Shown here piece by piece: positions 1,998 to 62,993 of a stretch of DNA of 64,000 nt (position 1 is its first letter; each line of letters begins with the position of its first letter). Both the position numbers and the translations under genes were made by a program. The notes beneath the pieces were generated by a model. It was not told the DNA's origin. It did no database searches and worked only from the letters and a program-made list of their open reading frames with translations. The stretch spans positions 43,656 through 107,655 of IMG/VR virus record IMGVR_UViG_3300028883_000036. The stretch is one strand, 5' to 3'. Origin of the DNA: a virus.

Positions 1998-2003
1998 ATT
2001 TCA

Positions 2004-6082: not shown

Positions 6083-6083
6083 A

Positions 6084-14408: not shown

Positions 14409-14759
14409 TTATAATATTTTTACCCACTTATTATCTTTCTTACCTTCTATTTTAAGATTATTAGATTTTATTTGTTCTTCTACCATTTCATCAATAGATT
14501 TTCCATTCATTACCTGATAGACCATCATAGAATGCCATAATTTAAATTTAGGATGTTTAATCAAACCATCAAATGCTTCCTTGATATTTGCTTTTCTTTC
14601 ACGATTTGATTGACCAGTAGCCATAGCACCCGATTCTTTATGATGTATTCTTACACAATTTTGATGTTTATTTCTATATTGCCCACCTGCTCCTTTACCA
14701 GAAAAATATTCAATATTTAAATTTTTTTTAGTTACTGAAAATAATAATTCTTTTTTCAT
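14409..14759 (-). CDS. Stand-alone RF-1 (GGQ) peptidyl-tRNA hydrolase domain protein
   Basis: FSGKGAGGQYRNKHQNCVRIHH.ESG....Q..R.R.AN...A. Confidence 0.9.
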   Translation of the reverse strand: MKKELLFSVTKKNLNIEYFSGKGAGGQYRNKHQNCVRIHHKESGAMATGQSNRERKANIKEAFDGLIKHPKFKLWHSMMVYQVMNGKSIDEMVEEQIKSNNLKIEGKKDNKWVKIL

Positions 14760-17994: not shown

Positions 17995-18438
17995 TTATTT
18001 TTTTACTTTTTTCTTCTTTTTCTTATTCCCCCTGATTTGTTGATAATCAATTCCACATATTTCAAAAAAAGACCAATCATCTGTAGAGTTTTCATCAGGA
18101 GTTATAAAATCTATATTTTTATAACAAATATCTTTTATCTTAGAATGTTTCTTTTGTTTAGATATATAATTCAAGAACGAATTATGTATAATTCTACTAA
18201 AATATGCAAATGGATTTGGATTATCAATTGTTATATCAAAATTATGCATATACTTTAAACATGTGAGTACAGCTTCACATATCATATCTTCTTTCCATGA
18301 ATATCCAGCAAAACTTCCTCTATCAGAATACTTTTTAGCTAAAAGCAATAACATTCTACCAAGTTCTTCAGTTTGAATCTCATCTTCTACATATATTTTT
18401 ATTTCTCTTAATAATTTTTCATTGTTAATATAATTCAT
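17995..18438 (-). CDS. T4 gp55-like late-transcription sigma factor
   Basis: YINNEKLL, FAGYSWKEDMI.EA...CLKY.HNFD, NPFAYFS.II.NSFL.YI.KQKK. Confidence 0.9.
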   Translation of the reverse strand: MNYINNEKLLREIKIYVEDEIQTEELGRMLLLLAKKYSDRGSFAGYSWKEDMICEAVLTCLKYMHNFDITIDNPNPFAYFSRIIHNSFLNYISKQKKHSKIKDICYKNIDFITPDENSTDDWSFFEICGIDYQQIRGNKKKKKKVKK

Positions 18439-24842: not shown

Positions 24843-25721
24843 TTAAGTAGTACTTGAACTTGAACTTGAAGTTGAACTACTAGAACTTGAACTACCTTGA
24901 ACATTTACATTAACATTTACTTCATAATCCATAAATATTCTTGTTGCTGTAGAATTTAAATGTCTTATTCTTTTTGGTACTATTTCTTTTTTATCATTTA
25001 TTTTTGCAAGTCTAACTATTGTAGTTTTACCAATAATATTAGAATGAGATACATCTTTATAAAATATATCACCTGAAGGAGTCCATGTTGTTACTTCTTC
25101 TTGATGCTCATTAACCCCACCATATTCTAAAGATTCAGATCCTTCAGCAGTACACCATGTAATAATATCATAAAGCATTTTATTACTTACAACTTTATTA
25201 TATTTATTATCATCACATCCACTACTATAATCTACTGGATAAATATCATGTGGACTTGCTGATGGAACTACTGCATTAACATGTGACCACCATTTATTTC
25301 CATAAAAATCAGATATGAATTTATTTTTATCAGATACATCTGCACCTATATTTGTATTTTCCCATGAAAAAGCATTAGGCCAAGGATTTATATTTTGAAT
25401 AACTCCTGGTGCTATACCTGCTTTATACCATTCTAATCTAAATTCTTGAGTATATGGATACCCACCATCTTCCCATTCATTAGCTAACCAAAATTCGAAA
25501 AACCCATTACTATCTGTTTGAATTTCAGCTACACTACTTGTAGTATATGAAGAACCAGTTTCAGTTAAATATATCCTTGCTTCTGTAGTAGGATCATCAT
25601 TTAAATATAAATTAATATAAACATCAGAAATTGGAACTCCTTCTTCATTTAAAACATAATGCCAAAAATGAATTCTAGATAAACTAAAATACGATGATGA
25701 AGAAGAACTTGAACTTGCCAT
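24843..25721 (-). CDS. Virion protein with poly-Ser at both termini
   Basis: WHYVLNEEGVPI..TDSNGFFEFW; VVPSASPHD shared with 24017..24823. Confidence 0.65.
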   Translation of the reverse strand: MASSSSSSSSYFSLSRIHFWHYVLNEEGVPISDVYINLYLNDDPTTEARIYLTETGSSYTTSSVAEIQTDSNGFFEFWLANEWEDGGYPYTQEFRLEWYKAGIAPGVIQNINPWPNAFSWENTNIGADVSDKNKFISDFYGNKWWSHVNAVVPSASPHDIYPVDYSSGCDDNKYNKVVSNKMLYDIITWCTAEGSESLEYGGVNEHQEEVTTWTPSGDIFYKDVSHSNIIGKTTIVRLAKINDKKEIVPKRIRHLNSTATRIFMDYEVNVNVNVQGSSSSSSSTSSSSSSTT

Positions 25722-25755
25722 TTAAATATACCTATTTTAATAATTTATTTTAATT

Positions 25756-26949
25756 CTATCTATTATTTATATTATTTATACATTCTTCAATTGGTTCATC
25801 CCAATTTAAAGAATCTTTTTGCCTAAAAATTTCAATTGAATCATACCAATCACTTTTATTTCCATCACCAGACCATATGAAATATGGAACTATAGGAACA
25901 ATTACATATGTTTTCTTACCTATAGCACCAGCTAAATGAGCAATACATGTACAACTTGTTATTACAATATCCATCAATGATATTACAGCTAATGTATCTT
26001 CTAAGGTTTCAAGTTCAAGATCTTGAACATTGGATGGAGTTTTTGTTTTTACAGTTTCTTTTTGTAGAGAAAATAATTTTCCTTTTAATCTACTTGATAG
26101 CTTTTTAACAGGCAGAGTCCTTCTTTGATCGTGTTCAAATAGTTGTCCACCTTCCCACCTTAATCCTATGTTAAAGTCTCCAAGATCAAGCTTAGATTTC
26201 CATTTTTCCACATATTTAGCACTAGGCTTTATAAATGATTCTCCTGTAACTTTATTAAGTTTTAATTTTACAGGTAAACTCATGCTTGCAACCCAATAAT
26301 CATGTATCGGGTACATATCTTTTGTTGTAACAAACGAAACTTCATCCATTCTGTTAAATATTAATTTTGTTGTTTCCGTACATTTAACAAAAATTTCTGC
26401 TCCCATTTGTTTTAATTGTCTAAAAAATCTTGCAAATATAATTTCATCACCAATTCCACCTTCAGTAATAATAAAGAGTTTTTTGCCCTCTATTGATTCA
26501 CCATTCCATTCAGGAGTTGGAAATTGAATATTTTTTGTACCCCAACATCCAATATTTCTTCCATGTTCTAAACACTCCATTCCTTTTAAAAAATTTCCAT
26601 CTGATAAATTATACCATCCAAGATTAAAAATTGTTCTATTATCTTTAGGAAGTGTTTGTAAAATTTCAAATGCTTCCTTTTTTTTATTTACCCAAGGAAG
26701 ATATAAAGCTAATTCTCTTTTTGCATCTTCCCATTCTGTATCAAGCATTAAACATATATTCATATATTCTATAGCTTTTTCATATAAACTTGTATAATAA
26801 GCACATTTAGCAGTATTAAACCTTATTTTTTTATTTAATGGGTCCATTGCTAATGTGATTTCTGATTGTTTATATGCAAGATCATATACCTTATTTTGAA
26901 AAAATTGATAAGCCAATTGATCTGACATTTGTATAAATTGGTCTTTCAT
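25756..26949 (-). CDS. TPR-repeat plus GT9-like glycosyltransferase
   Basis: N-terminal TPR helices; PEWNGE, EGGIGDEI.FARF, MSLP, IGLRWEG, DT.A.I..MDIVITSCT..AHLAGA.GK, WY.S...FRQ...W. Confidence 0.85.
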   Translation of the reverse strand: MKDQFIQMSDQLAYQFFQNKVYDLAYKQSEITLAMDPLNKKIRFNTAKCAYYTSLYEKAIEYMNICLMLDTEWEDAKRELALYLPWVNKKKEAFEILQTLPKDNRTIFNLGWYNLSDGNFLKGMECLEHGRNIGCWGTKNIQFPTPEWNGESIEGKKLFIITEGGIGDEIIFARFFRQLKQMGAEIFVKCTETTKLIFNRMDEVSFVTTKDMYPIHDYWVASMSLPVKLKLNKVTGESFIKPSAKYVEKWKSKLDLGDFNIGLRWEGGQLFEHDQRRTLPVKKLSSRLKGKLFSLQKETVKTKTPSNVQDLELETLEDTLAVISLMDIVITSCTCIAHLAGAIGKKTYVIVPIVPYFIWSGDGNKSDWYDSIEIFRQKDSLNWDEPIEECINNINNR

Positions 26950-26971
26950 AACATTCTCTCTCCTTCACATA

Positions 26972-27613
26972 TTAATTCCAAAATGTTTTATACCATAACT
27001 TTGCCCTATCTAATATTTTCTGTTTATTTTGATCATAATTTCCAAGATGAAAAATTAAATTATATTCTGTTTCAACAGAAAATGGTTCTATATATTTCAA
27101 ACTATATTTAGCTAAATTTCTACTCATTATATACTCATCTACAATTTTTCTTTCTTGTTTTATTTTACAAAGAATATCTTCCATAGATAATTCTATTGGA
27201 AATTTCCATAGATCATGAGTATATTTTGTAGTAAATACAGCACATCCAGAAATACCAACATTTCTACCATCTCTTTTGAAATATATGTCATTTACATCTA
27301 ATTGATTGCTTGCATAATAATTATCTTTAAAAGAACAATAAGTTTCTGGTATATTTTTAAGAAATGGATTATAACAATCAGGATGTATCAATACATCTAA
27401 ATCTAATAACATATTAAAATCATAATTTTTTCCATCTTCATATACCTGAAGCTTTTCTGTTAACAAAGGCCATTCATTAAACTTTCTTTCTTTTATAATA
27501 TTTAAATCTGATCCAATCTTCTTACAATATCTTTCTATTGTAGGTAATGTTAAACTTTTTAATTCAGGAAAATAATTTCCTATATCTATAACATGCACAC
27601 ATATTGATTTCAT
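26972..27613 (-). CDS. GT-A glycosyltransferase (GT8/GT34-like)
   Basis: TLPTIERYCKKIG, EKLQVYE, LLDLDVLIHPD DxD motif. Confidence 0.7.
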   Translation of the reverse strand: MKSICVHVIDIGNYFPELKSLTLPTIERYCKKIGSDLNIIKERKFNEWPLLTEKLQVYEDGKNYDFNMLLDLDVLIHPDCYNPFLKNIPETYCSFKDNYYASNQLDVNDIYFKRDGRNVGISGCAVFTTKYTHDLWKFPIELSMEDILCKIKQERKIVDEYIMSRNLAKYSLKYIEPFSVETEYNLIFHLGNYDQNKQKILDRAKLWYKTFWN

Positions 27614-27630
27614 ATTTTACCTTTTATTTT

Positions 27631-30600
27631 CTATATTCTAATTCCAGCACAACCAACACCTGCTTGATTTTGGTCTGTAGACCCTATTTTTAACCAATCT
27701 GTTTCCGAACCAACTTGTTCTGGAAGGGAATGTGAAATTATAGTACCATCAGCTAATTGACCATAAGAATTATTGCCCCATGACCATAAAGTTCCATCAG
27801 TTTTAATAGCAAAAGTACTATTGATACCACTATAAACAGAAGACCATGTATCAGTACCAACTTGAGTAGGAGAATTTACAGCACCCCCTGTAAGACCAAG
27901 CTGTAAATCAGTATTATTACCCCATGACCATAAAGTTCCATCGGTTTTAACAGCATGAGATGTTAACTCACTACCAGCTATTTCATCAGACCAATCTGTT
28001 AATGCCCCTATTTGAACAGGAGATGATTTAGATACTATAGTACCATCACCTAATTGACCTTCTAAATTTCTACCCCATGACCATAAAGTTCCATCGGTTT
28101 TAACAGCAATAGTATGATATGTTCCATCTTTAACATTACTCCAATTCGTATCACTACCAACTTGAGTAGGAGAACTTCTATGTGTAGTTGCTCCCTGATC
28201 ACCTAGTCCTAATTGACCATATAAATTACTACCCCATGACCATAAAGTTCCATCAGTTTTAATAGCATGACATGTGTATTGACATTGTGATATAACTGCC
28301 CAATCTGTTAATGCCCCTATTTGAATAGGAGATGATTTAGATACTATAGTACCATCACCTAATTGACCATTATTATTATATCCCCATGACCATAAAGTTC
28401 CATCGGTTTTAATAGCTAAACATGAACTAATACCATCTGTAGAACAATATTCCCAATCTGTTAATGCCCCTACTTGTGTTAATACTGATTTTGATGAAGT
28501 TGAACCATTACCAAGACCACCATTAGAACCATACCCACAAGTCCAAAGTGTTCCATCAAGTTTTATAACAATATTAAGAGCACCCATATCAACTTCTTTC
28601 CATGTAGTATCTGAACCAACTTGAGTAGGAGATGATCTTCTATCTGTATCATTTAAACCAAGTTGACCAAAAGGATTAAATCCCCATGCAAATAATTCAC
28701 CAACAATAGCTGTACTTGAACTACTTGAACTTGATGTTGATTCACTTGAGCTTGAACTTGATATGCTTGAACTTGATACTGAACTACTACTTGATGAACT
28801 TGTAGAACTTGAAGATGAAGAATTAAGTGCTTCTATTCTATAATGAAAAAAACATTGAACCCCTTCAGGTTTATGTAATGTACTACATCTTGAATACATT
28901 ATTAAATCATCAAGATAATTAAAAAGACCAACTTCAGTTATATCAACATCTGAATAATCTTTAGGAACAATAAAATCAACTAAAACTTGTTGACTTCCAT
29001 ATTGCTCTATTGCTTCATATGCTCCACTCGTTACAGGAGATTCTAAATCATTTTCAACAAATGGATTCCATAATGTACTTGTTCCTGTTCCTACTTTCCA
29101 ATATCCCAAAACATCAGGACATATTCCTATTCCAAGTATATCACAATTATATGGAGAATAAACAACTCTATCTCTTAATACTTGAATTATATGAGCATAT
29201 CCTCTTTTATTTTCAGCCCAATAAATTTCTAAATTATCTTGATCAATAATAACTATTCTATCAGGAGATATTGTTTCATATGTAGTAATGTCATAACATT
29301 GAACGATAACCCATGAATTTAACTTATGTTCTATAGACCATTTAGTAGATGGATCATATTGATTATGAATATAATCAGATCTTCTTACCAATGATCCACC
29401 TGAAACAGCAGTATTCCAAGTTGTTTGTATAATATCTTGAGTAGGAATATCATTTATATAAGGAATAACTCTATAACCATTTGTATCCCAATGCATAGCT
29501 ATTGGTCCTGGTGCCGCTGATGTACCAATATAACCTGATGGAGTATTAGTAGATAAATTATGAGTTATATTCCATATATCTGCTCCTGCACTTACATAAT
29601 TTTCATTATAAAAACTAATTCCATTAGCCGCTGATCCTGCAATAGCAGCAACCCCTCTTACTGACTCATTAAAAGTTAATTCTACTGCATTATCACTAAG
29701 CATATGTACTGTATCAGGTTGTACTAATTTTGCTCCTACACTTGTTGGTCCTACAAAAACCCAAGGCTGAACCAAAATATATTTACTGTTTAAATTATGT
29801 GTAATTGTCCATTTTTTAGATGCAAATTGTTGAAAATGTGAATCAGTATTAAAACCACCACTACTTCTTCCCCCCGCTGATATAAATCGTGACCCTGTAA
29901 AAAAAGTATTCATAAATCCATTTGAATTTTTCGGATATAATGCTACTGAATCACCAATTCTATCAACTTTTGCCAATGGAGCAATTAATTCTTCATAATG
30001 AGCATATTTATTAACTGGTTTGACATAATCAAAATTAGTTATTAATTCATCTATAATATCTTCACTAATAATTGTATCATTATCAAATATATCACCTAAT
30101 GGTTCAGTAGATAAATCTACTTGAACCTTATAATGTGGTGTAATAACAGGATACCCTGAGTTAGTAATTGTTTGAGTATATGTATTATTAAGAGAAAGAC
30201 CATATATAGTTCCAGACCATTTTTGATGCCCTGTAATTCTTTTACCATTCAAAACAGTTAAAATTGAATATGAATTAACTGAACTTAAAGAAAGAGAAAA
30301 TGTTTCAAGTAAATCCCCAACTAATCTATTTTCTGTACTATAAACTCTTACTCTTAATACTGCATCTGTTCTATCTATAGTAAGATAATATGGAGTATTA
30401 TATGTATAAACATATGTAGATTTAGTACTATTTTCAATTCCACTTTTAGATTCACCTAACCTAAAGAAAATATTACTACCTGATGCTTCAAAACTACAAT
30501 AAATATAATCACCTACATGATCTGATATTTGAGCTACTTCATTACTTAAAGACCAAAAAACCAAATTAGAAGGTTGATTTAAATAAACATTTTCATCCAT

Positions 30601-31782
30601 TTTAATACCAATTGAATGAATAAAATTACCGCTATATATAGGAGTAGCTGCACTTAAATATATTGTTTGAGTAGTTAATCTTGTAGGATCATATTCAGTA
30701 ATAGAAATTTGATTTTCTTTAATATCACCAACTGAGCAATTTAAATCATCATAATTAAATAGTATATAATTTTCTTCTGTTCCTGTATCCCAAGCAAAAG
30801 TTAAACAATTTCCTGATGGTGCTACTCTTGTATGAACAGGATAATTATCAGGATTATATCTTGAATAATAATAATCACCAGCACCACCACTAGGTTGAAT
30901 ACCATAAAATTCTAAAAAATGATAATCTTCAAACTCATCAGTTAATTTTCCAAATGTATCATCTATATTCTGAACACACCATTCCCCCCATCTTTCATAT
31001 ATATTTAAATGATTACTAGTATTTTTCGAAAATAACTTCCATACTATATAAAGAGCATTATATGTTCCTATTCTTTTTAAAAAATATGGTAAATTTTCTA
31101 CCCATTCTCTCAATGAAAGTTCATCAAGAACTTCTTCTGATATTTCCACTCCATATGTACTTGCAATATAAGCTAACCATCTTATATCAATTTCTTTTGC
31201 ATCAAACATAGACCAAAATGTTTTTGTCATATTATACATCTCATGATGTACTTGATCCCAATAAACCTTTAACCATTCTTCCATATTAACAGTTTGATTA
31301 TGTTGTGGAATTCCCTTTAAAGTAAAATCTTTAAGTCCTTCAAATTCAATTGAATATGTATTTATTTCATTACTTACAGGCCAAATTTTACCAAAGAATA
31401 AAAATGTTTTTTCTTGATTACAATAATTATGATATAAATCATCTTGTTCTGGTCTTGCTAACCAATAATGAAAAAAAGAATCTTTTCTAAAATACATTTC
31501 ATTACCGATATCAAAAGCACTAGAAGCAACAGAAAAAGTAGATTCAAGACCTTCATATGTCATTTTAAATCTATTACCAACTATTTCTTTAATCTTAAAT
31601 CTATGCCCAACATACCCTCTATCAGAATTATCTTCATAAAGAATAGTATATACCCCACCTTGACTTACTACAGTACGATTAGGACCAATCAATACACTTT
31701 TTTGAGTACCTACTCTTTCTGCAACTAAAATATCAAAATATGACTTCAATAATTTATAATTAGGATCTGAAAATTTCCCCAT
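27631..31782 (-). CDS. Large baseplate wedge (gp7-like)/fibre protein with poly-Ser linker and C-terminal RCC1/BLIP-II propeller
   Basis: D..WLAYIA.TYG ... LK.IGTY..L (P2 gpI/gp7-like), KPVN, W.ITHNL repeats, ITEVGLF, then about 7 KTDGTLWSWG.N..GQLG repeats. Confidence 0.75.
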   Translation of the reverse strand: MGKFSDPNYKLLKSYFDILVAERVGTQKSVLIGPNRTVVSQGGVYTILYEDNSDRGYVGHRFKIKEIVGNRFKMTYEGLESTFSVASSAFDIGNEMYFRKDSFFHYWLARPEQDDLYHNYCNQEKTFLFFGKIWPVSNEINTYSIEFEGLKDFTLKGIPQHNQTVNMEEWLKVYWDQVHHEMYNMTKTFWSMFDAKEIDIRWLAYIASTYGVEISEEVLDELSLREWVENLPYFLKRIGTYNALYIVWKLFSKNTSNHLNIYERWGEWCVQNIDDTFGKLTDEFEDYHFLEFYGIQPSGGAGDYYYSRYNPDNYPVHTRVAPSGNCLTFAWDTGTEENYILFNYDDLNCSVGDIKENQISITEYDPTRLTTQTIYLSAATPIYSGNFIHSIGIKMDENVYLNQPSNLVFWSLSNEVAQISDHVGDYIYCSFEASGSNIFFRLGESKSGIENSTKSTYVYTYNTPYYLTIDRTDAVLRVRVYSTENRLVGDLLETFSLSLSSVNSYSILTVLNGKRITGHQKWSGTIYGLSLNNTYTQTITNSGYPVITPHYKVQVDLSTEPLGDIFDNDTIISEDIIDELITNFDYVKPVNKYAHYEELIAPLAKVDRIGDSVALYPKNSNGFMNTFFTGSRFISAGGRSSGGFNTDSHFQQFASKKWTITHNLNSKYILVQPWVFVGPTSVGAKLVQPDTVHMLSDNAVELTFNESVRGVAAIAGSAANGISFYNENYVSAGADIWNITHNLSTNTPSGYIGTSAAPGPIAMHWDTNGYRVIPYINDIPTQDIIQTTWNTAVSGGSLVRRSDYIHNQYDPSTKWSIEHKLNSWVIVQCYDITTYETISPDRIVIIDQDNLEIYWAENKRGYAHIIQVLRDRVVYSPYNCDILGIGICPDVLGYWKVGTGTSTLWNPFVENDLESPVTSGAYEAIEQYGSQQVLVDFIVPKDYSDVDITEVGLFNYLDDLIMYSRCSTLHKPEGVQCFFHYRIEALNSSSSSSTSSSSSSSVSSSSISSSSSSESTSSSSSSSTAIVGELFAWGFNPFGQLGLNDTDRRSSPTQVGSDTTWKEVDMGALNIVIKLDGTLWTCGYGSNGGLGNGSTSSKSVLTQVGALTDWEYCSTDGISSCLAIKTDGTLWSWGYNNNGQLGDGTIVSKSSPIQIGALTDWAVISQCQYTCHAIKTDGTLWSWGSNLYGQLGLGDQGATTHRSSPTQVGSDTNWSNVKDGTYHTIAVKTDGTLWSWGRNLEGQLGDGTIVSKSSPVQIGALTDWSDEIAGSELTSHAVKTDGTLWSWGNNTDLQLGLTGGAVNSPTQVGTDTWSSVYSGINSTFAIKTDGTLWSWGNNSYGQLADGTIISHSLPEQVGSETDWLKIGSTDQNQAGVGCAGIRI
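27991..28368. repeat. Near-identical 69-nt direct repeat inside the RCC1 coding region
   Basis: 27991-28059 vs 28300-28368 differ at 1 of 69 positions. Confidence 0.85.
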
Positions 31783-32208: not shown

Positions 32209-33921
32209 TTATGTTTCTTCAAATATTTTTACTGTGTTACTTGATAAATAAGGAAACTGATTCAATCCTAATTGAATAGGTCTTAACATATTATCTCTAT
32301 TTGTCCAAGGAGCATTAGACCATTTTGGAAATAATGTTGGATCATCAGAATTAACATTATATTCATATATAGTTTTATTAATGTTAATATCTCTTATATT
32401 TAAATTTCTTATTCCTTTGATATATTCAAAATTATCATCAGGAGATACATTACTTGTATCTATTAAATATTCTGTTATATCATTAAAATCTATTTCACTA
32501 TTAAACAATTGATTTTCAGCCCTAAAATAATAAATAAGTTTATTCAAAACATCTGTTTGAATATCAGCAAAATCATATATTCTTTTCTTTCTTACACCAA
32601 TTTCAAAACTAAAATATATTAAATCAGGAATTTCCATTATTTCATATGCTGATATCATTTTTCTTGGTCTTAAATAAAGAAGTAATTCATTTTCCCATGC
32701 AGAAGAATATCCTATTGGAATTAATATAGATTCTGTTTCATTCCAATCCGTAGTAATAGTACCCGCTGAAGTTTGAATTGTACTATTATTAAAATCTTCA
32801 GGAATAACACTAATATGAACTAAATTATATTCTTGTGGATCTCCTGAACCAGAAGGAACTAAATCTTGTTCACCATAAGCATTAGCTTTAATAACATCTG
32901 ATCTTGCTGATAAAAATGAATTATATGCTGTAGCATTTACATCTCTAAATTGTGATCTCAAAGCTGATTGAGAATTAAATCTAATTTCATCAATAGTTTC
33001 AGGAGCAGAAGCACCTATACTTGCTGCACTTAATGACATAGTAATTACATTATTATTAACATAAGAAGTAGTTATCCCTCTAGTAAGTTCTATAAATTCA
33101 TCTGAATTAATTACCCATGTTTCATCTGCATCTTCACCAATACTTCCATCTGTTCCTAAACTATCTAATGCTATTATAGATATATCATCATCTATTGTGG
33201 GAACATTTCTTGATGAATTAAATACTATTTTATTTCTTCTATATCTATCATATATTGACATATATACATTATCTGAAGATTCAATAACATCTAAATAAAA
33301 ATCTGAAACTCTTGTCCATTCTGTATCATTTACTGTAACTCTAATACTTGGTAATTCATCTGTTAAATCATCATCATATCCATATTCAGAAGGAAGAATT
33401 AACTCATTATCAATTAAATCATCACCTGTATATCCAGTTAAATTAACTAATTCTCCTTGTCTTACTGGAACATTTATAACGGTATCTGTACTTGAAGCTG
33501 TAACTTGTACTGAAGCTGTAGTAGCAAATAAAATTTGATTTCCATCAGTATCTTGTCTTCCTGAATCTAATTGTTTCCAAGGCAACACCCTAAGAACATC
33601 TCCTACTTGTGTTCCTGATACAGCTACTTGTAAAGTACATCTAGCAGATCTTGTTCCTTTTGGTTCATATCCTATTTGTCTTGCCAATCTATTTGCTGCT
33701 TCATAAACATCAGCAGTTTCAAGAAAATTATTTTTTGCTATTTTATTTATAAAAAATGTATTTAATTCACTTACATAAGCATTTAACTCCATTAAAATAG
33801 AAATATTAGATCCTTCAAAATCATAATCTTTAAATACTTCACTATTTTGAAGTTCTGTTTTGAATTTTTCTATTAGAGTTAAAAAATCTGTAGAAAGATA
33901 TTCAGGGGTAAATTCAGCCAT
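32209..33921 (-). CDS. Baseplate wedge subunit, T4 gp6-like
   Basis: DF..L...K..L...FKDYDFEGSNISILMELNAY, FLETA...A.RLA.QIGY.P, GA.PETIDEIR..S. Confidence 0.92.
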   Translation of the reverse strand: MAEFTPEYLSTDFLTLIEKFKTELQNSEVFKDYDFEGSNISILMELNAYVSELNTFFINKIAKNNFLETADVYEAANRLARQIGYEPKGTRSARCTLQVAVSGTQVGDVLRVLPWKQLDSGRQDTDGNQILFATTASVQVTASSTDTVINVPVRQGELVNLTGYTGDDLIDNELILPSEYGYDDDLTDELPSIRVTVNDTEWTRVSDFYLDVIESSDNVYMSIYDRYRRNKIVFNSSRNVPTIDDDISIIALDSLGTDGSIGEDADETWVINSDEFIELTRGITTSYVNNNVITMSLSAASIGASAPETIDEIRFNSQSALRSQFRDVNATAYNSFLSARSDVIKANAYGEQDLVPSGSGDPQEYNLVHISVIPEDFNNSTIQTSAGTITTDWNETESILIPIGYSSAWENELLLYLRPRKMISAYEIMEIPDLIYFSFEIGVRKKRIYDFADIQTDVLNKLIYYFRAENQLFNSEIDFNDITEYLIDTSNVSPDDNFEYIKGIRNLNIRDININKTIYEYNVNSDDPTLFPKWSNAPWTNRDNMLRPIQLGLNQFPYLSSNTVKIFEET

Positions 33922-33934: not shown

Positions 33935-34312
33935 TTATCGTGTTAATATAAAACTCACAGTTTCAACTTCATCACTACCTATTATTGTAAAGTTGAGTCT
34001 ACATCTGTATGCATTTTGATCATACAATGGTTCAATATCAAATCTTGTAATATCAATTCTATTTTCCCAAATTTTAATAGCATCAATTAAATTTTCCGCT
34101 ATTTGTCTTGCAGAAATTTCATCAATAGGTTCAAACAAAAGATGTTTTACATTAGAAGCAAAAGTAGGTAGCATTCTTCTTTCCCCTTGAACAGTCAAAA
34201 TAATATTAGTTATACTATTAAATATTGCATCCACATCAGTATCTTTTTCAACATCTCCATCAGACTGTTTTGTAAAACTTCCATCATAATCACTATAAAA
34301 TACTGTTGCCAT
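33935..34312 (-). CDS. Baseplate wedge subunit gp25-like
   Basis: DAIFNSITNIILT.QGERRMLPTFAS....LLFEP ... IWENRI. Confidence 0.92.
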   Translation of the reverse strand: MATVFYSDYDGSFTKQSDGDVEKDTDVDAIFNSITNIILTVQGERRMLPTFASNVKHLLFEPIDEISARQIAENLIDAIKIWENRIDITRFDIEPLYDQNAYRCRLNFTIIGSDEVETVSFILTR

Positions 34313-34691
34313 TTTTTATCCTCTTTGGGTTTATTTTAATAGAATCTATCTTTCTATCTTTATTTATCTTTAATTGTTTGCATTTTTTAGAATTTTCAGT
34401 AATTAATATGCATTCTGTTTCTTCTTTTGCTTTTTTATTATATAAAATGATATGTTTTTTCTTTTTATAATATTCTTTATTATATTTCTTTATTGCATTT
34501 TTATTATTCTTCTTCCATTTTTCATTACATTTCTGTTGTATTAATTTTCCTTTTTGAGAAGATTTATATTTTTTGGTAATTTTTCTCATACAATCCCTAC
34601 AATATATATTTTTACCATCAGGATTAGATGTTTTTTTACCAAACTTCCCAATTTTTCTATTTCTACCACAACATTTACATATCTTCTTCAT
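34293..34691 (-). CDS. Zn-finger basic protein resembling the N-terminus of an HNH/EndoVII homing endonuclease, no nuclease domain seen
   Basis: CKCC...F.K....DG...YCRDC followed by a Lys-rich helix. Confidence 0.55.
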   Translation of the reverse strand: MKKICKCCGRNRKIGKFGKKTSNPDGKNIYCRDCMRKITKKYKSSQKGKLIQQKCNEKWKKNNKNAIKKYNKEYYKKKKHIILYNKKAKEETECILITENSKKCKQLKINKDRKIDSIKINPKRIKNGNSIL

Positions 34692-34842
34692 TTTTTTTAT
34701 GTTTCTTTTTTCTACTATATTTTGATTTATCTTTAAAAAATTGACTACCTTTAGCAGTAGGAATTCTTAATGCTTTCTTTTGATCTAAAGTATCTCTTTT
34801 TTTCTTTTTAGCTTCAGGTAAATATTTATCTATCAAATTCAT
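34675..34842 (-). CDS. 55-aa basic peptide with MNLIDKYLPE leader and ArfA-like YxRKxKH motif (not in ORF track)
   Basis: MNLIDKYLPEAKKKKRDTLDQKKALRIPTAKGSQFFKDKSKYSRKKKHKKNEEDM; GGAG upstream; starts 2 nt after the cca stop. Confidence 0.75.
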   Translation of the reverse strand: MNLIDKYLPEAKKKKRDTLDQKKALRIPTAKGSQFFKDKSKYSRKKKHKKNEEDM

Positions 34843-34843
34843 T

Positions 34844-36274
34844 CTAAACTCCTGTTATCTTTTTGATATATTTTTCAATTTCTTCTTTGTCTTCTATATC
34901 ATGGTCCATTATCCATTCTGTAGTTTGAGTTATTATCTTTCCAATTTTAGGTCCAGGTTTTAATCCTGTCCATTTTATTACATCTTTACCATCCACCAAT
35001 TTAATCTGTTTATTGAGTTGTTTAGCACCAAACTTTTCTTTAACCTTAACGGCTTTATCAACAATTTTTTCAAATTCTCCTGCATGACTAAACATATGTC
35101 CTCTTGCATATTCATCAGCTTTTCCAACACTAACCAATACATCCCAATTATTATCAGAAACAAGTTTAGCTATTTTAGAAGGTTTCATATCAAGAATCTT
35201 ATGAAACTTCATATGATTTCCAACTGCAAATATAAGAGCATCTTTTTCTTTATTACTCATTCTTAATCTATCAGCTATAGCATTCACTAAATCAATTGAT
35301 TTCCTAGCATGACCAAGATATTTGGGTAATCCTTTATCATGAGACAAAGTTATACCTTTACCTACATCGTGTAAAAGTATAGCCAAATTTTTAATCGGAT
35401 CAGCAGAATCACTCTTTTTAAGTGCTGCCATGACATGACTATATACTGTACCACCTTGCCCCCTTGTTTCTGGATGATGTTGTAAATTTTCTCTATACCA
35501 TTTCAAATTAACTATTTCAGGTAATATATGTTTAAGAAGTTTTAACTTATCCAACATATCAATATATTTTGCAAATTTATCTCCACTCTGAGAAGCAGAT
35601 TTCATCAATTCATCTTTAATTCTTTCAGGTGCAAGTCCTGTTATATTATGAGCTAATTTTTGTGCTGCTTTACTTGTATTTTTATCAACCTCAAAATCAA
35701 GTTTAGCTGCAAATCTTGCAAGTCTCATCATCCTCAAATAATCCTCACCAAACCGCTTGTAAGGATCACCAACAGTTTTTAAAACTTTATCTTTGATATC
35801 CCTCTTACCATCAAAATAATCTACAATTTCACCCTTAGAATTGATTCCCATTGCATTTATAGTAAAATCTCTCCTTTCAACATCCTCTTTAAACTTTCCT
35901 GTTATTGTAACCGATTCTGGTCTTCTACCATCAAAATAAGTTCCATCATTTCTAAACTGAGCTATTTCAAAATCATATCCACCTTGTTTCACAACTACAA
36001 TTCCAAAACTTTTTGATTTACCTATATCATATGTTTTAAACATAGTAGATAATTCATCCATAGGCATATTAGTTGCTATATCAACATCATGAGGTTTTAA
36101 ATTACCTAATACAATATCTCTTACACTTCCACCTACTATATAAGCCTTATATTTCTTCTTATTTATCTTATTTAGTATATCAACAGCTACTTTTAATTCT
36201 TTATTTCTTCTTATATAAGATTGCCAATCTTGTAATTTTTCTTTTGCTTCATTCAAATATCTTGTTAGTCTCAT
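34844..36274 (-). CDS. cca: Class II tRNA nucleotidyltransferase (CCA-adding) with HD domain
   Basis: VGGSVRD, DVDIAT, EDVERRDFTINAM, RFGEDYLRMMRLARF, ERIKDE, HHPE..H..LLHDVGK..GHA HD domain. Confidence 0.93.
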   Translation of the reverse strand: MRLTRYLNEAKEKLQDWQSYIRRNKELKVAVDILNKINKKKYKAYIVGGSVRDIVLGNLKPHDVDIATNMPMDELSTMFKTYDIGKSKSFGIVVVKQGGYDFEIAQFRNDGTYFDGRRPESVTITGKFKEDVERRDFTINAMGINSKGEIVDYFDGKRDIKDKVLKTVGDPYKRFGEDYLRMMRLARFAAKLDFEVDKNTSKAAQKLAHNITGLAPERIKDELMKSASQSGDKFAKYIDMLDKLKLLKHILPEIVNLKWYRENLQHHPETRGQGGTVYSHVMAALKKSDSADPIKNLAILLHDVGKGITLSHDKGLPKYLGHARKSIDLVNAIADRLRMSNKEKDALIFAVGNHMKFHKILDMKPSKIAKLVSDNNWDVLVSVGKADEYARGHMFSHAGEFEKIVDKAVKVKEKFGAKQLNKQIKLVDGKDVIKWTGLKPGPKIGKIITQTTEWIMDHDIEDKEEIEKYIKKITGV

Positions 36275-36693
36275 TATATATACCCATATTTTTTTGCATT
36301 TTTTATTGATTTATTAGACATAGCAACAGGAATTTTTTTCATACCTAAATCTCTTAATACAGCATATCTATGTCTTCCATTTCCAAAAGATATTCTACCA
36401 ATATCATCAATATCAACAGAAGAAACTATAATATTTCCTTCAGGAGATTCACCTAACCATCTTTTTCTTTCATCTTCTGGTTTTTCTATAATTTCTTTAA
36501 ACATTTTATATCTACCACCAATAGCATTCCCACTTCCACCTTTACCAATATAAAAATTTTTATCCCTTGACCATTCTTTATCAAATTTATTAACAATTAC
36601 TTTTACAATTTTTCTATCAGTTTCAAATTTAGCCTTTTCAAATTTTAAAGACTTCAAATCAATTCCTTCATTCAAATATCTTTTAAATTTCAT
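36274..36693 (-). CDS. ParB/Srx-like domain protein with MKFKRYLNE leader
   Basis: ISFGNGRHRYAVLRDLGMKKIPV. Confidence 0.65.
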   Translation of the reverse strand: MKFKRYLNEGIDLKSLKFEKAKFETDRKIVKVIVNKFDKEWSRDKNFYIGKGGSGNAIGGRYKMFKEIIEKPEDERKRWLGESPEGNIIVSSVDIDDIGRISFGNGRHRYAVLRDLGMKKIPVAMSNKSIKNAKKYGYI

Positions 36694-37406
36694 TAAAAAT
36701 ACCTCTTTGGATTTTTAGTAGAACTACCTGTAGCAGCATTAATAGTTTCATTTATTTCTTTCTGAACTATTTCTGATTTAGCTTTAAAAGATTTTATATT
36801 ATCTTTTAATGCAGTATCAAATCCTGTCATTAATATATCTTCATCAAAACTTCCATCTTCCGCAAGATATAAATCATCTGTAACTGTAGTAACTCTATCT
36901 TGTAATAATTGTATTTGATCTGCATATTCTGATGCCTGTTGTGATAAAGAAACACATTGTAATTTTTTATTTATTGCAGCAATTAAATCACTAATTTCAC
37001 TAGTAAGCCCCCAAATTTTTTGTAAAGCTTTCATCAAATCACTTTCAGGTAATGCCAATATTTCACTAATAGCATCTAATCCATCTTCAATATTATTCAA
37101 TACATTATTCGCATATTTTTTTATATTAGCCAAAGCAATACTTAAACAATCTCCTACAAGATCATTTATAGGTTCAATATCTGATACTGATGCACATAAA
37201 ACTTCAGAAGTCAAAGCATTTAAAGCAGTATTAATAGTACTAGATGGAGATATGCTATTAGGATCAAAACCTGTTCCTTGAGATCTAAAATCATCTACAT
37301 ATGGAGTTATCCCTCTTGCTTGTGCTTCAAGTGTATCTATCTCCCCTGTACTTGTATCTATAATATTTTGTAAAGGATCTATACTATTATTTTGATTACA
37401 AGTCAT
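36693..37406 (-). CDS. Hypothetical helical baseplate-associated protein
   Basis: 237-aa acidic helical ORF directly after gp5. Confidence 0.6.
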   Translation of the reverse strand: MTCNQNNSIDPLQNIIDTSTGEIDTLEAQARGITPYVDDFRSQGTGFDPNSISPSSTINTALNALTSEVLCASVSDIEPINDLVGDCLSIALANIKKYANNVLNNIEDGLDAISEILALPESDLMKALQKIWGLTSEISDLIAAINKKLQCVSLSQQASEYADQIQLLQDRVTTVTDDLYLAEDGSFDEDILMTGFDTALKDNIKSFKAKSEIVQKEINETINAATGSSTKNPKRYF

Positions 37407-37414: not shown

Positions 37415-38683
37415 CTAGCTTGCTTGAGTATTTGTTGTTAATTCACTAGAACTCATTTGTTGATTAGGTGGATCAGTAGTTCCCCCACCATCACCATTTT
37501 CTTTATGAGTATGAGAATTATACACTGAAGCAGCAGTAGCATTCATTATTTTCTTTAATGATCCTTGATTAGCAAGATTTACTGTTCCTGTTAAATTTAT
37601 TGTAGGAGCAGTAACAGTAGTAGTACCATCTGATGTAATATTAGCTGCTCCTGTTACAGTAATATTTAATGCACCACCAATATCTTCTGTTTTATTACCA
37701 CCAATATCTTCTGTTTTATTACCATCAATATCTTCTGTTTTATTACCATCAATATCTTCTGTTTTATTACCACCAATATCTTCTGTTTTATTACCACCAA
37801 TAGTTTGACTCATGTTATTTGTAATTTGTTCTTCTTTGCTACCATTTATTTCTATAGTTTCATCTTCAGCTATTCTCTTTTTTGATCCTGCATCTATAGT
37901 AAGATTTCTTTGTTGTTTAATATGAATGTTTTTACCTTCAGCAATTATTTCATATTTTTCTCCATCATTTTTAACAACCATATTTCCATTATTATCAATT
38001 TCAATAAAACTATTAGATGGATGATAAAGATGTAATCTAGTAGAACCAGGAGTTGAATCTAATTCAATTGTTATTCCACCATGAGTAGCAATAACATGAT
38101 TATGAGGATATTGTGAATTATAAGGTGAAATGGGTTCCGACCAACTACCACCCAAAGCTGTTGGAACACCTAAATCTCTTTCATTATTTTTTGTTGTTAC
38201 TAAAGTTTCTTTTGATATTCCTCTTGATAATCTATGAAAATCAGGTTCACCTAATCTACCATTAACAGGATATTGCCCATCAGGATCTTTAAAGCCATCA
38301 CTTTTATTTGTTTCTCTATTATTATTTGAATATTGTTCCTTTGATTCAGGTATTCCTGGCAAAGAAGCAAAATATCTTGGTTCAGAAGGATTAGAATTTT
38401 CAAAAAATACCATTACTTGTGACCCTTGTAATGGAACAGCCCATGAACCAAATCCACTTATAGATCCTTCATGAATAGGCATACAAGGTTCAGCCCAAGG
38501 TAATTCATCTGTTGGTATACCTTCTATATCATTCTTTGTAATCTTTGGTGTATGTAATCCATGTATTCTTATTCTAACTCTACCTGCTTTTAATGGATCT
38601 TTATTATCTTCAACAACACCACGATAAAAACCAGTTAAATTTTCAATATTAATTCTTAAATCTTTTGGTGGATTTTTAAGCAT
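37415..38683 (-). CDS. Baseplate central spike gp5-like (OB fold, beta-helix, HxH tip; no lysozyme domain seen)
   Basis: GVVEDNKDPLKAGRVRIRIHGLH, LPWA, YP.NHV..T.GG..E.D.TPG..R...YHPS, GGNKTEDI repeats, YNSHTH. Confidence 0.9.
   Translation of the reverse strand: MLKNPPKDLRINIENLTGFYRGVVEDNKDPLKAGRVRIRIHGLHTPKITKNDIEGIPTDELPWAEPCMPIHEGSISGFGSWAVPLQGSQVMVFFENSNPSEPRYFASLPGIPESKEQYSNNNRETNKSDGFKDPDGQYPVNGRLGEPDFHRLSRGISKETLVTTKNNERDLGVPTALGGSWSEPISPYNSQYPHNHVIATHGGITIELDSTPGSTRLHLYHPSNSFIEIDNNGNMVVKNDGEKYEIIAEGKNIHIKQQRNLTIDAGSKKRIAEDETIEINGSKEEQITNNMSQTIGGNKTEDIGGNKTEDIDGNKTEDIDGNKTEDIGGNKTEDIGGALNITVTGAANITSDGTTTVTAPTINLTGTVNLANQGSLKKIMNATAASVYNSHTHKENGDGGGTTDPPNQQMSSSELTTNTQAS
37673..37801. 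repeat. 24-nt tandem repeat encoding 8-aa beta-helix units (G/D)GNKTEDI
   Basis: About 5.5 copies of acca(c/t)caatatcttctgttttatt. Confidence 0.9.
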
Positions 38684-38691: not shown

Positions 38692-40011
38692 CTATTTACT
38701 TAATATTCTTATTTGTTGAATATCTCCTTCTTGACGTATATTTGTTATTTTTGATTTATATAAAATTTTACTATCAATATTTGTATATGCATTTTTAATT
38801 AAAACTAATCTTTGCCTATATGGATATGTACTACCTGGATCAAATGAATGAGTGACACTTTTTATTAAATATTTACCTTCAAGCAAATCGTTATAAGCTA
38901 CATAATCTCCTTTATTTCTAAATGCACTAGGCCAAGCTATCTGTATTTGCTGTCCTGCAAATCTTTTTTCATGTCCTTCAACAATTAAATTTACAATAAA
39001 TTGCATATTATATCTTTTTGACCAATCATTATAAGCTATATTATCAAGAAGAAAATCATCATTCCCACCAACAATAACATTTGATGATAAAACATCATCC
39101 ATTTGATTATATAAAGTTTTACTGCCTAGCATAACAGTATTATCAGCCCCATCTGAATATACATATTCATGATTTAATAATTTCTTTGTATTAAAATCAT
39201 ATCCTTTCCATACTCCACCTCTTAAAACTGAATTTGAATTTCTATCAAGCCCACTCATCCACCATTCAAGGATCTTATTTTCAGCAGATACTTCTGCTTT
39301 ATCAAATGAATATTTTATAGGATCATATGTTTTTCCTAAATCATATAACAAGTAATTCATTGTAACAAGATTATGACTAATTCCTTTATCTGTATTATTA
39401 AAACATAAATACCCACTTGTTCCTGAATCTTTCCCCTTTGCCCTTCTCATTAACCATCTCATAGCTGTTTGAGGATTCCAATAGGGAATAATAAAATCTG
39501 TTTTATTACTACTTTCTTCTACATTAAAAACTCTACCAGCTTGTTTAAAAAATACCATATTATTCAATATATCTTTCATTATATCAGAATAATATTTATC
39601 ACTCCAACTTCTACTATATTTTCTTAAAGAAAAACCAGTATAAAATGGATCAACAAAATTCATAGTAATAAGATTATCACTTTCTTCTCTCATACCTGAA
39701 CCTGTTTGTTGAATCTTACCAACTTTCCATATGTCAAAAATTAATTCTCTATTCTTTTGTTTTCCATCTTTCCCAACAGAATATATAATAGCTAACTTTT
39801 CATTTCCTGTAAATGGGCCATATTGCATTATATTATATCTATCATTTATAGTAATAGTTCCAGTAAGACAGAACTTAAATATATCTTCTATAAAATATAA
39901 TTTATTAATATCTGCATTGTTTAAAACAATAGGTTGTTTTTCTGTAATTAACAATACACTAAAAATATTTTTTTTAAGTTCTACCTTTCCTTTATCATAA
40001 TCTGTTTGCAT
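38692..40011 (-). CDS. Baseplate hub protein (gp27-like)
   Basis: EDIF...TG.I.I.D, IPYWNP..A..WL, LEGKYLIKSVTH; lies between gp53 and gp5. Confidence 0.75.
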   Translation of the reverse strand: MQTDYDKGKVELKKNIFSVLLITEKQPIVLNNADINKLYFIEDIFKFCLTGTITINDRYNIMQYGPFTGNEKLAIIYSVGKDGKQKNRELIFDIWKVGKIQQTGSGMREESDNLITMNFVDPFYTGFSLRKYSRSWSDKYYSDIMKDILNNMVFFKQAGRVFNVEESSNKTDFIIPYWNPQTAMRWLMRRAKGKDSGTSGYLCFNNTDKGISHNLVTMNYLLYDLGKTYDPIKYSFDKAEVSAENKILEWWMSGLDRNSNSVLRGGVWKGYDFNTKKLLNHEYVYSDGADNTVMLGSKTLYNQMDDVLSSNVIVGGNDDFLLDNIAYNDWSKRYNMQFIVNLIVEGHEKRFAGQQIQIAWPSAFRNKGDYVAYNDLLEGKYLIKSVTHSFDPGSTYPYRQRLVLIKNAYTNIDSKILYKSKITNIRQEGDIQQIRILSK

Positions 40012-40775: not shown

Positions 40776-40783
40776 TATTTATA
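40776..40783 (-). promoter_or_regulatory. T4-type late promoter TATAAATA
   Basis: Exact TATAAATA upstream of the baseplate operon, just downstream of a terminator. Confidence 0.6.
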
Positions 40784-43785: not shown

Positions 43786-44055
43786 TTATTTCATCCAATC
43801 TATTATTTGATTAACTGTACCTTGCCCACCAATTATATACTTTCCATATGTATTAATTAATTTTTTAACTTTCTTTTTATCACCTTTTTTCATTGCCCAT
43901 GAAACATTAGCAGTTATTTCCCCTTCTTTACCTTTCATTACTTTAGCAATTTGTTCTAATGCATCAGCAAGACTACTTTTATCATATTTAGAAGAATCAA
44001 ATTTCATATTAGGAATATATTTGGCTTCACCTATATATTTTTCTATTAAATCCAT
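43786..44055 (-). CDS. Small head/internal-type protein, leader MDLIEKYIGE
   Basis: Shared N-terminal leader family. Confidence 0.65.
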   Translation of the reverse strand: MDLIEKYIGEAKYIPNMKFDSSKYDKSSLADALEQIAKVMKGKEGEITANVSWAMKKGDKKKVKKLINTYGKYIIGGQGTVNQIIDWMK

Positions 44056-44965: not shown

Positions 44966-45394
44966 TTATTTATTTAGCCATTCTTTATGATTATCAGGAT
45001 CAATATAACCTTTAATTTTCATTACGACTGATGTTAAATAATCCCATTTATCCATTTCTGTATTAAAATTAAATTTTCCCCATCCTGCTATACTAATTTT
45101 ATCTTTTGTTAAATTAATAATATGTTTATCAGAAAATATATTAGGTATTCTCTTATTCAATTCTTTTTTTATATCTTTTCTATATTCACTCCATCCTTTA
45201 TCAGTACTCAAATTATATTTACTTAATTTTATACTCTTTAAAGCATCACTAACTTTTTTATAATAATCAGTTTCAGATTTTACAGTTTCTTTATATTCTT
45301 TCTTTTTATTTCCTTCTAATTTATCATAAATTTGTTTTCTTTTTCTATTTCTACCAAATATATCTTCACATAAATATTTATCTATTAAATTCAT
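44966..45394 (-). CDS. Small protein, leader MNLIDKYLCE
   Basis: Shared leader. Confidence 0.7.
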   Translation of the reverse strand: MNLIDKYLCEDIFGRNRKRKQIYDKLEGNKKKEYKETVKSETDYYKKVSDALKSIKLSKYNLSTDKGWSEYRKDIKKELNKRIPNIFSDKHIINLTKDKISIAGWGKFNFNTEMDKWDYLTSVVMKIKGYIDPDNHKEWLNK

Positions 45395-49999: not shown

Positions 50000-50371
50000 A
50001 TGAATTTAATAGATAAATACTTAGGAGAAGGATATTCACAAAATACACCATCAGAAATAATAACAGCTATACAAAGAAAAGGGAAAAAAATAGCAAATGA
50101 TCCCTTTGATATTAATAAAGCATATTTTAATTTAGATGGAACTGTATATAAAGCAGGAGTTGGTAAAGGTGTTGTCAATATGGGAGACATAAAAAGTTTT
50201 ATTAAAAAGGTAAAAACTGGAAAATTAAAAGCTAAATTAGTTGAAGGTAAAACATCATCAACACAAATGCAATGCATGGAATGTGGTCATAAATTCAAAA
50301 AGAAATTAGGAAGAAATACATTTGAAGTGAAATGTCCGAAGTGTAAAGGATATGATACTGAACCAGTATAA
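50000..50371 (+). CDS. Zn-ribbon protein with MNLIDKYLGE leader
   Basis: CMECGHKF...KCPKCKG. Confidence 0.75.
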   Translation: MNLIDKYLGEGYSQNTPSEIITAIQRKGKKIANDPFDINKAYFNLDGTVYKAGVGKGVVNMGDIKSFIKKVKTGKLKAKLVEGKTSSTQMQCMECGHKFKKKLGRNTFEVKCPKCKGYDTEPV

Positions 50372-50384: not shown

Positions 50385-50579
50385 ATGAATAAAATAGAAA
50401 AATACTTAAATGAAGGTAAAAATGATTATATTGTTACTTCTTATGGAACTATAATCAATATAAAAAATGGATATAAATTTGCTGATGAAAATGAATTAAC
50501 TGAAATACAAAAAAAATTCGGTAAAATTGCTAAAGAATGTAAAATAAAAATAGGAAGAATAGATATCACACCAAAATAG
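50385..50579 (+). CDS. Small protein, leader MNKIEKYLNE
   Basis: GGAG RBS before ATG 50385. Confidence 0.7.
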   Translation: MNKIEKYLNEGKNDYIVTSYGTIINIKNGYKFADENELTEIQKKFGKIAKECKIKIGRIDITPK

Positions 50580-50587: not shown

Positions 50588-50953
50588 ATGAGATATTTCA
50601 GATATTTAACAGAAGAAAATGTTATATCAAAAGCATTAAATCTTCCAGAACCTAAAGTTGGTGGTGATTATCCCCCTGAAAAGGTTAAAAGATATATAAA
50701 AATAATTGAAGATGCTTTAGCAGCAATGGCAAATAAAGAAGAAAGTGAATCTAATGATGCTATTGTATCTGATTTAAGAGATAAAAAAAGTAAATGGAAA
50801 AATGTAAATAAAGAAACAAAACCAACTAAAACTAAATTGGAAGTTCCCCCTGATCAAGAAGAAGAACCACCACCTGAACAGGAAGAACCACCACAAAAAA
50901 AAGAAGAACCAAAAGAAAGTAAAATTGAGAAAATGTTTAGAAAAATGCTCTAA
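50588..50953 (+). CDS. Small protein, leader MRYFRYLTEE, Glu/Pro-rich tail
   Basis: GGAG RBS; leader. Confidence 0.7.
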   Translation: MRYFRYLTEENVISKALNLPEPKVGGDYPPEKVKRYIKIIEDALAAMANKEESESNDAIVSDLRDKKSKWKNVNKETKPTKTKLEVPPDQEEEPPPEQEEPPQKKEEPKESKIEKMFRKML

Positions 50954-62980: not shown

Positions 62981-62993
62981 ATATTTATCCTAT

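Follow-up and report, generated by a model that had tools for sequence, protein, structure and literature searches.

In bacteriophage T4, the capsid targeting sequence has been described on Alt and on a handful of small anti-restriction proteins. In the T4 genome (NC_000866), ipII and ipIII begin MKTYQEFIAE↓A, and the ipI propeptide ends ITE↓A (arrows mark cleavage sites, here and below; those of the phages described here are predicted). Cleavage by the prohead protease gp21 follows L/I-X-E, at the end of a propeptide of about 10-19 residues, an LIE motif lies near the N-terminus of gp21 itself, and residues 1-10 of IPIII are enough for head loading; mutagenesis assigns targeting mainly to residues 4 and 7 and processing to residues 8 and 10, and proteins fused to the tag are delivered and are active after ejection (PMC9026906). 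Alt-family proteins are head-loaded although their genes lie among baseplate genes, and head packaging has also been described for the ParB domain of P1 DdrB (PMC5512222). In jumbo phages, CCA-adding enzymes have been read as RNA repair against host RNase-type defences (Iyer et al. 2021, PMC7824862). Here we analyze a stretch of 64 kb ("the window"), the right-hand part of the 107,655-bp IMG/VR contig IMGVR_UViG_3300028883_000036 (positions 43,656-107,655), in which three adjacent genes of a baseplate operon share a short N-terminal leader. They encode a ParB/Srx-fold protein of 139 residues, a class II CCA enzyme of 476 residues with an HD-like region and a lysine-rich peptide of 55 residues. 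We consider it reasonably likely that this leader is the T4-type capsid targeting sequence of the clade to which the phage belongs, and that all three proteins are loaded into the head, clipped and injected, the CCA enzyme then serving in tRNA repair. On this evidence, the particle probably contains the CCA enzyme and its two neighbors, which would enter the host together with the DNA.

Leader-bearing genes were searched with the motif [YF][LI]xE ending at residues 8-12, and the expectation was taken from the frequency of the motif elsewhere in proteins. The contig of the window has 9 such genes against 1.1 expected (Poisson P 3e-6), and a 156-kb relative has 19 against 1.7 (P 2.5e-14). The sampled DNA of the clade contains 90 distinct open reading frames (ORFs) with a leader. 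Their main consensus is M-[KR]-[FL]-x-[KR]-Y-[LI]-x-E, the next residue being mostly A, D or G, while a 10-residue form reads M-[DN]-L-[IV]-[ED]-K-Y-[LI]-x-E. The terminal Glu is invariant in all 90. Counting back from it, position -3 is Y/F in 88 of the 90, a position that the search pattern forces to Y/F/W, and position -6, which the pattern leaves free, is F/L/I/V in 80. Pattern-free positions are strongly biased, with K/R at -7, hydrophobic residues at -6 and K/R at -4. Hydrophobic -6, aromatic -3, L/I at -2 and Glu at 0 are the same four positions as in T4. The similarity spans the ATG to the Glu codon, the DNA upstream of leader genes is dissimilar, and the orthologs of the 55-residue peptide carry one or other of the two leader types. 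Thus, the leader is a protein module that can be exchanged between genes rather than a DNA repeat, and the evidence supports reading it as a portable address tag that works at the level of the protein, like the capsid targeting sequence of T4.

A leader of this kind could also have a duty other than packaging: it might set the context for translation initiation or coupling, act as a degron, offer chaperones a handle or form the pro-piece of a zymogen, with the enzymes acting late in the producing cell. An AT-rich genome limits codons, so that short N-terminal similarity arises more easily, and the other RNA-repair genes of the phage function without a leader. Nevertheless, we find this scenario unlikely given the enrichment, the invariant Glu, a pattern of conserved positions that is that of the T4 tag and the dissimilar upstream regions. 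Furthermore, leader genes are found in a head-core cluster, and a minor head protein of another phage carries these cargo modules as fused parts (both described below).

By its gene content, the phage of the window is a deep-branching T4-type myovirus. Its DNA polymerase B is ~28% identical to cyanophage and rhizobiophage polymerases, T4-type markers include a fused gp46/47-type nuclease, UvsX and a DnaB-type helicase, and gp27-like, gp5, gp25 and gp6 baseplate genes were identified. Megablast and tblastn against 50,697 phage records found no cultured member of the clade, only distant relatives. The contig has 27% G+C and an estimated completeness of ~51%. PF03420 and PF07068 gave no match on it or on five related contigs, which are 19-70% complete and on which the controls were likewise without match. 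PHROG scans of 40 large ORFs from three contigs returned replication, sugar and RNA-repair genes and no head genes, and a weak Portal_T4 match in the 156-kb relative was dropped, as it sat in a 59-aa frame.

The head machinery is present in other relatives. A 34.6-kb contig, with a 60% identical DNA polymerase and a shared gene order, encodes a T4 portal (8.5e-96), a Peptidase_S77 protease (8.4e-29), a T4-type scaffold (1.9e-14) and Gp23 (3.7e-72), and small ORFs that begin MDRIDEKIIEA, MDLVEKYIGG and MKNLVDKYLGEA sit between its protease and its scaffold. The same S77 protease/scaffold layout is found on a 161.6-kb contig, which also bears, surrounded by an island of leader genes, a CCA ortholog (70% identical, MRFKRYLAEA), and in addition a ParB-like gene with a leader (MRLKRYLTEA). 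The S77 proteases of the clade are 35-39% identical to T4 gp21 and have an N-terminal LI(T)E, as gp21 does. Additionally, VL(N/T)E↓G and (W/H)L(Q/M)E↓(A/G) occur in the propeptides of the capsid proteins as candidate L-x-E sites. On a 231.7-kb contig, a Peptidase_S77 match (79026-80828) lies within a 1109-aa open frame and may represent a prohead protease fused to other domains. The original prediction, made from the letters of the window, had taken late expression and the leader as signs that the enzyme is packaged and delivered at infection. Enrichment, conserved positions and the head genes of relatives speak for a T4-type tag, and packaging, which we infer from it along with cleavage and ejection, is well supported.

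A protein of the unrelated phage IMGVR_UViG_3300018018_000009 (bases 649-7341; 2230 aa) contains CCA and ParB-like modules side by side. Its N-terminal 350 residues have minor head/head morphogenesis (MuF-type) matches in 532 phage records. The CCA module (residues 1266-1692) is 29% identical to the enzyme of the window (2e-27), the alignment starting at residue 24 of the latter, and the ParB-like module (1785-1881) is 43% identical to the ParB-like protein of the window. This fusion of MuF-type, CCA and ParB-like parts gives independent support for both modules travelling together as virion cargo.

In the window, the minus-strand order is gp27-like, gp5, 237-aa gene, 139-aa, 476-aa and 55-aa leader genes, 132-aa zinc-ribbon gene, gp25 and gp6 (table 1), with intergenic gaps of -20 to +13 nt from gp27-like to gp6. 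The junctions of the three leader genes are TAATG, TAATG and then a 1-nt gap, an arrangement of translational coupling. Gene calls and junctions agree with the original prediction of three consecutive coupled leader genes between gp5 and gp25, although the interval holds five genes, the 237-aa and 132-aa ones being untagged. The run from gp27 through gp5 and gp25 to gp6 also supports the claim that they belong to a late-type structural operon. Late expression of the leader genes is suggested by the operon structure, a gp55-like factor and an upstream TATAAATA.

The 476-aa protein clearly belongs to the class II CCA family. Pfam recognizes a PolyA_pol head (PF01743, 5e-32) and an RNA-binding neck (PF12627, 7.5e-12), NCBIfam CCA models match at 2e-75, 1e-53 and 3e-49 with PcnB behind at 3.6e-46, and the nearest solved structures are the CCA-adding enzymes 6ibp and 1miv. 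Invariant in 14 orthologs are GGxVRD (G48, G49, V51, R52, D53), DxD (D63, D65), RRD (R134, R135, D136) and the nucleotide-selecting motif EDxxR (E177, D178, R181). It had been described as a full class II CCA enzyme with an HD domain, of which the second part is the weaker. Pfam HD gives E 0.0033 and 18.2 bits, under the 22-bit cut-off, and the alignment to the E. coli-type CCA/repair model NF008137 covers profile positions 2-325 of 409; within the HD region, H267, H280, H302-D303, H354, H358 and D387 are invariant in the 14 orthologs. An AlphaFold2 (AF2) model from the 14 orthologs was poor, with a predicted local distance difference test score (pLDDT) of 53.

Specificity for CCA as the product is putative, the scores lying under the equivalog cut-offs, namely 254 bits versus 290 for NF009814, 183 versus 439 for TIGR02692 and 168 versus 451 for NF008137. 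In an alternative scenario, the enzyme would be another class II nucleotidyltransferase, either a poly(A) polymerase or one that adds A or CC, working on other RNAs such as phage tRNA-like RNAs or decay-marked host RNA. The missed cut-offs and the PcnB matches are in line with this, as is a conserved region at residues 10-23 (W17, Y20, N24) without counterpart in known enzymes. However, CCA-adding enzymes come first in both NCBIfam and PDB, far ahead of PcnB, and the EDxxR motif and HD region are present as in E. coli Cca, so that we hold such an activity to be quite unlikely.

The leader is kept in 16 of the 16 CCA orthologs read, which are 57-85% identical. NCBIfam profiles start to align at residues 24-43, and residue 7 of 1miv aligns at residue 29; beyond the 9-aa leader the enzyme has ~14 further residues, with the conserved W17, Y20 and N24. 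Since bacterial models and structures align only from there on, the leader and the W17/Y20/N24 stretch are clade-specific. The CCA enzyme of Vibrio phage D181 begins MKIYLVGG, and the best cultured-phage match lacks such a leader. That MRLTRYLNE is an extension missing from bacterial CCA enzymes, as had been proposed, is thus supported, other phage CCA enzymes lacking it as well; its cleavage is predicted after Glu9. The three tRNA-Leu genes all end in ACCA, in agreement with the earlier observation that the phage tRNAs already encode CCA, and this favours a role in repair over one in maturation.

For the neighboring 139-aa protein, 17 homologs were found. Its AF2 model has a pLDDT of 87 with residues 1-9 as the sole disordered stretch, and the top Foldseek matches are nearly all ParB/Srx folds (Osa, Noc, KorB, sulfiredoxin, ParB and SbnI), the best with E 3.6e-3 and probability 1.00. 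A profile search gave a weak SbnI match (0.028), and NGRHRYAVLRD, which includes GRHR, is invariant in 18 ParB-like homologs. Pfam ParBc has no match on this protein, and a partition ParB was ruled out given 139 aa, a single domain and the lack of that match. The name "ParB-like" is therefore apt at the level of the fold, with AF2, Foldseek and GRHR in agreement, and not in the sense of a partition ParB; nor was a link to translation found. Modules of the ParB/Srx-fold family, of DNase/NTPase type, recur in polyvalent proteins delivered by virions, and the ParB-like domain is also found inside giant multidomain phage proteins. Many of the homologs bear the clade leader. One, from ENA contigs of up to 10.7 kb, starts MKTYKELIAES and is 8/10 identical to the T4 tag; for its genomic context, tblastn against phages returned partial Nodularia siphovirus matches only, and a metagenome scan two contigs of <2 kb. 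In a larger protein collection, the ParB-like protein of the window is recorded on a 160,163-bp contig, and a longer assembly than the 107,655-bp IMG/VR record therefore exists.

Eight orthologs of the 55-aa peptide, highly basic and lysine-rich, have RIPT...KDKSKYSRKKKHKK in common, and DUF7230 matches at 25 bits, below its cut-off. The peptide had been called ArfA-like. ArfA is also a small basic protein, and BLASTP against E. coli ArfA aligns 12 residues, 7 of them identical, between KDKSKYSRKKKH of the peptide and KGKGSYMRKGKH of the ArfA tail (E 0.012 for the single pair). However, the RF2-binding N-terminal part of ArfA is without similarity, the match sits in a low-complexity lysine-rich stretch, and the ArfA family PF03889 gives no match at E <= 0.1. 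ArfA membership was rejected and the label is not upheld; an ArfA-like ribosome-binding role is possible but unlikely. We read the peptide as a small basic internal protein. One ortholog, on the contig of a relative (11427-11627), has no N-terminal leader and a C-terminus ...KLIDKYL.K; these leader-like words may be a remnant of cassette shuffling.

Comparison of 23 related loci shows a conserved order of gp5, 237-aa gene, variable leader genes, CCA, variable leader genes, zinc-ribbon gene, gp25 and gp6. CCA is the constant member of this slot, while the ParB-like gene is unique to the window at this place. Other leader-tagged proteins in relatives comprise a C39-like peptidase, a Zeta/AAA_33-type P-loop kinase, an NT5C nucleotidase and RimK-type ATP-grasp enzymes. 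The leader is absent from the tRNAs, from a 116-aa GGQ protein (window 14409-14759) and from the RNA-repair genes for a Ro60-like protein (phrog_850), an RNA ligase, a nucleotidyltransferase and an RtcB-type ligase, which lie at contig positions 747-2189, 15159-16442, 17637-18626 and 19746-20945. NCBIfam matches of the GGQ protein include PrfH, the partner of RtcB2 in ribosome repair. That the other RNA tools are untagged argues against one coherent injected "translation-rescue kit", as the three genes had been interpreted. That interpretation is supported in part: the ArfA likeness comes down to a basic motif of 12 residues, and the ParB-like protein is not a translation factor. The GGQ factor and the tRNA-Leu genes, suggested as possible members of the same strategy, are untagged and belong to modules elsewhere in the genome. 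Rather than a dedicated kit, the three genes are best seen as a fraction of a larger and variable set of head-loaded cargo.

We propose that the CCA/HD enzyme, the ParB/Srx protein and the basic peptide would be made late, alongside the baseplate proteins, and that the leader would dock them into the scaffolding core of the prohead. The S77 (gp21-type) prohead protease would then clip the leader after the invariant Glu, and the mature cargo would remain in the DNA-filled head until it leaves with the DNA at the next infection. There, with the CCA/HD enzyme already made, tRNA 3' ends could be restored or cleaned ahead of all phage translation; the damage itself might be the work of a defence toxin or of starvation of the host. 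As to a broader version of this proposal, we are evenly divided: an uncultured T4-type clade of sediment and aquatic habitats would address dozens of interchangeable enzymes, CCA/HD repair included, to the head by means of the 9-residue tag and so make the head a vehicle for their delivery, the MuF fusions of unrelated phages would be convergent, and virion-delivered tRNA repair would be widespread.

The leader might instead be a head-loading tag for cargo that works in the particle or in the producing cell, in core assembly, DNA charge neutralisation or capsid pressure, with CCA not an ejected effector. The extreme basicity of the 55-aa peptide, like that of T4 internal proteins, would suit such a role, and so would the small leader ORFs between protease and scaffold, which resemble core components. 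Yet we see this as improbable, as the catalytic motifs and HD residues of the CCA enzyme are invariant across orthologs, the leader cargo of relatives consists mostly of enzymes, and T4 tag fusions are active once ejected. Loading into the tail or baseplate lumen, as with the N-terminal signals for cargo of extracellular contractile injection systems, would fit a baseplate operon between the gp5 spike and gp25, but is most unlikely because the leader is also found between prohead protease and scaffold and in islands remote from tail genes, the protease itself starts with a leader-like LI(T)E, and the Alt family demonstrates that a baseplate neighborhood is compatible with head loading (PMC5512222).

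Several points weigh against head loading and tRNA repair as proposed here. The L/I-x-E motif is short. The contig of the window, ~51% complete, has no head module, so that the link to the protease rests on relatives whose markers are 60-70% identical. The capsid cut site could not be placed by alignment to T4 gp23, the column of T4 FLTE↓A being unconserved. With scores below the equivalog cut-offs, CCA addition is not separable from A-, CC- or poly(A) addition. Since RtcB, the RNA ligase, the Ro60-like protein and the GGQ factor are untagged, repair would also be possible after ordinary expression. Finally, TATAAATA is not enriched in the window (19 and 9 sites versus 22.6 and 16 expected), and as a general late-promoter signal it was rejected, its counts being below expectation.

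Table 1. Leader genes, baseplate operon and expression-related features of the window (window coordinates; arrows, predicted cleavage sites).
Feature	Position	Strand	Remarks
gp27-like	38692-40011	minus	baseplate
gp5-like baseplate spike	37415-38683	minus	Pfam Gp5_OB 3e-15 and Gp5 C-terminal repeats; upstream, same operon
237-aa gene, no leader	36693-37406	minus	after gp5; in 13 related loci; no family match
ParB/Srx-fold protein, 139 aa, MKFKRYLNE↓G	36274-36693	minus	leader at 36667-36693
Class II CCA enzyme, 476 aa, MRLTRYLNE↓A	34844-36274	minus	leader at 36248-36274
HD phosphohydrolase-like region of CCA enzyme	35105-35482	minus	about residues 265-390
Lysine-rich peptide, 55 aa, MNLIDKYLPE↓A	34675-34842	minus	10-aa leader at 34813-34842
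132-aa CxxC zinc-ribbon gene, no leader	34293-34691	minus	in 18 loci; weak PHROG endonuclease VII / Lar-like matches
gp25 baseplate wedge	33935-34312	minus	Pfam PF04965 6.7e-12
gp6	32209-33921	minus	baseplate
Leader ORF, 89 aa, MDLIEKYIGE↓A	43786-44055	minus	
Leader ORF, 142 aa, MNLIDKYLCE↓D	44966-45394	minus	
Leader ORF, 123 aa, MNLIDKYLGE↓G	50000-50371	plus	zinc-ribbon-like
Leader ORF, 64 aa, MNKIEKYLNE↓G	50385-50579	plus	
Leader ORF, 121 aa, MRYFRYLTE↓E	50588-50953	plus	
Leader ORF, 168 aa, MNKEDKYLNE↓Q	60550-61056	minus	
gp55-like late sigma factor	17995-18438	minus	phrog_234 8.5e-29
TATAAATA	40776-40783	minus	T4 late-promoter consensus; in 194-nt gap ahead of tight run 40726 to 27631

Some further genes were observed along the way. 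A 1061-aa ORF of the window (14794-17979) matches SbcD-like (residues 1-343) and SbcC-like (293-1060) PHROGs, and corresponds to a fused gp47/gp46-type nuclease. At 27631-31782, a fibre-like protein of 1383 aa has a long poly-serine linker followed by "GxLWSWGxNxxGQLGDG" repeats resembling RCC1-type blades; structural proteins in relatives likewise contain Ser-rich tracts. A "peptidase" gene (phrog_16701) flanked by two paralogs of ~310-350 aa is conserved in two relatives (106884-110258 in one and 24956-28158 in the other), and the right end of the window (~62990-63520) may hold the start of such a block.

If the proposed delivery is true, distant relatives of T4 use capsid targeting on a far larger scale, including for a housekeeping-type RNA enzyme, and repairing the translation apparatus of the host on arrival would be a counter-defence step. 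Defences that target tRNA are usually thought to outrun phage gene expression, a timing argument that a pre-made, injected repair enzyme would alter. Moreover, with its small size and well-defined consensus, the tag is practical for listing candidate injected effectors in metagenomic phage genomes. Full-text literature searches gave no report of a virion-associated CCA-adding enzyme and returned the T4 tag and phage CCA enzymes as separate subjects; a Klebsiella phage paper naming both terms was discarded, as it concerns a non-virion protein.

Among known systems, the E. coli Cca type and the Bacillus-type enzymes (1miv, 6ibp) have in common with the phage enzyme the head with GGxVRD, DxD, RRD and EDxxR, the neck and, less certainly, an HD-type C-terminal half; the phage enzyme differs in its ~22 extra N-terminal residues, its sub-equivalog scores and its location in a baseplate operon. 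The CCA enzymes of jumbo phages were described as ordinary expressed genes, with no head-loading tag or virion association reported (PMC7824862). Polyvalent proteins, such as MuF-fused cargo and the ParB domain of P1 DdrB, would be comparable as virion-delivered early effectors, and the ParB/Srx module of the window family does occur within giant multidomain phage proteins. Their domains are on one chain, whereas the window has separate genes, each with its own tag, and the survey of these proteins lists no CCA-adding enzyme (Iyer et al. 2017). The closest parallel is with IPI, IPII, IPIII and Alt of T4. These share with the clade a short propeptide in which L/I-x-E comes last and positions -3 and -6 are hydrophobic or aromatic, a portable tag on unrelated and fast-changing cargo, late structural neighbors and, as seen in relatives of the window phage, a T4-type S77 protease, scaffold core and gp23 capsid. 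On the other hand, the T4 sequence is MKTYQEFIAE and that of the clade M[KR][FL]x[KR]Y[LI]xE, mostly of 9 residues, and loading in the clade is predicted from sequence. T4 has a handful of tagged genes, compared with ~9 in the half-genome studied here and 19 in its relative, and among the predicted cargo of the clade are enzymes of full size, namely CCA/HD, RimK-like, C39 peptidase, P-loop kinase and nucleotidase.

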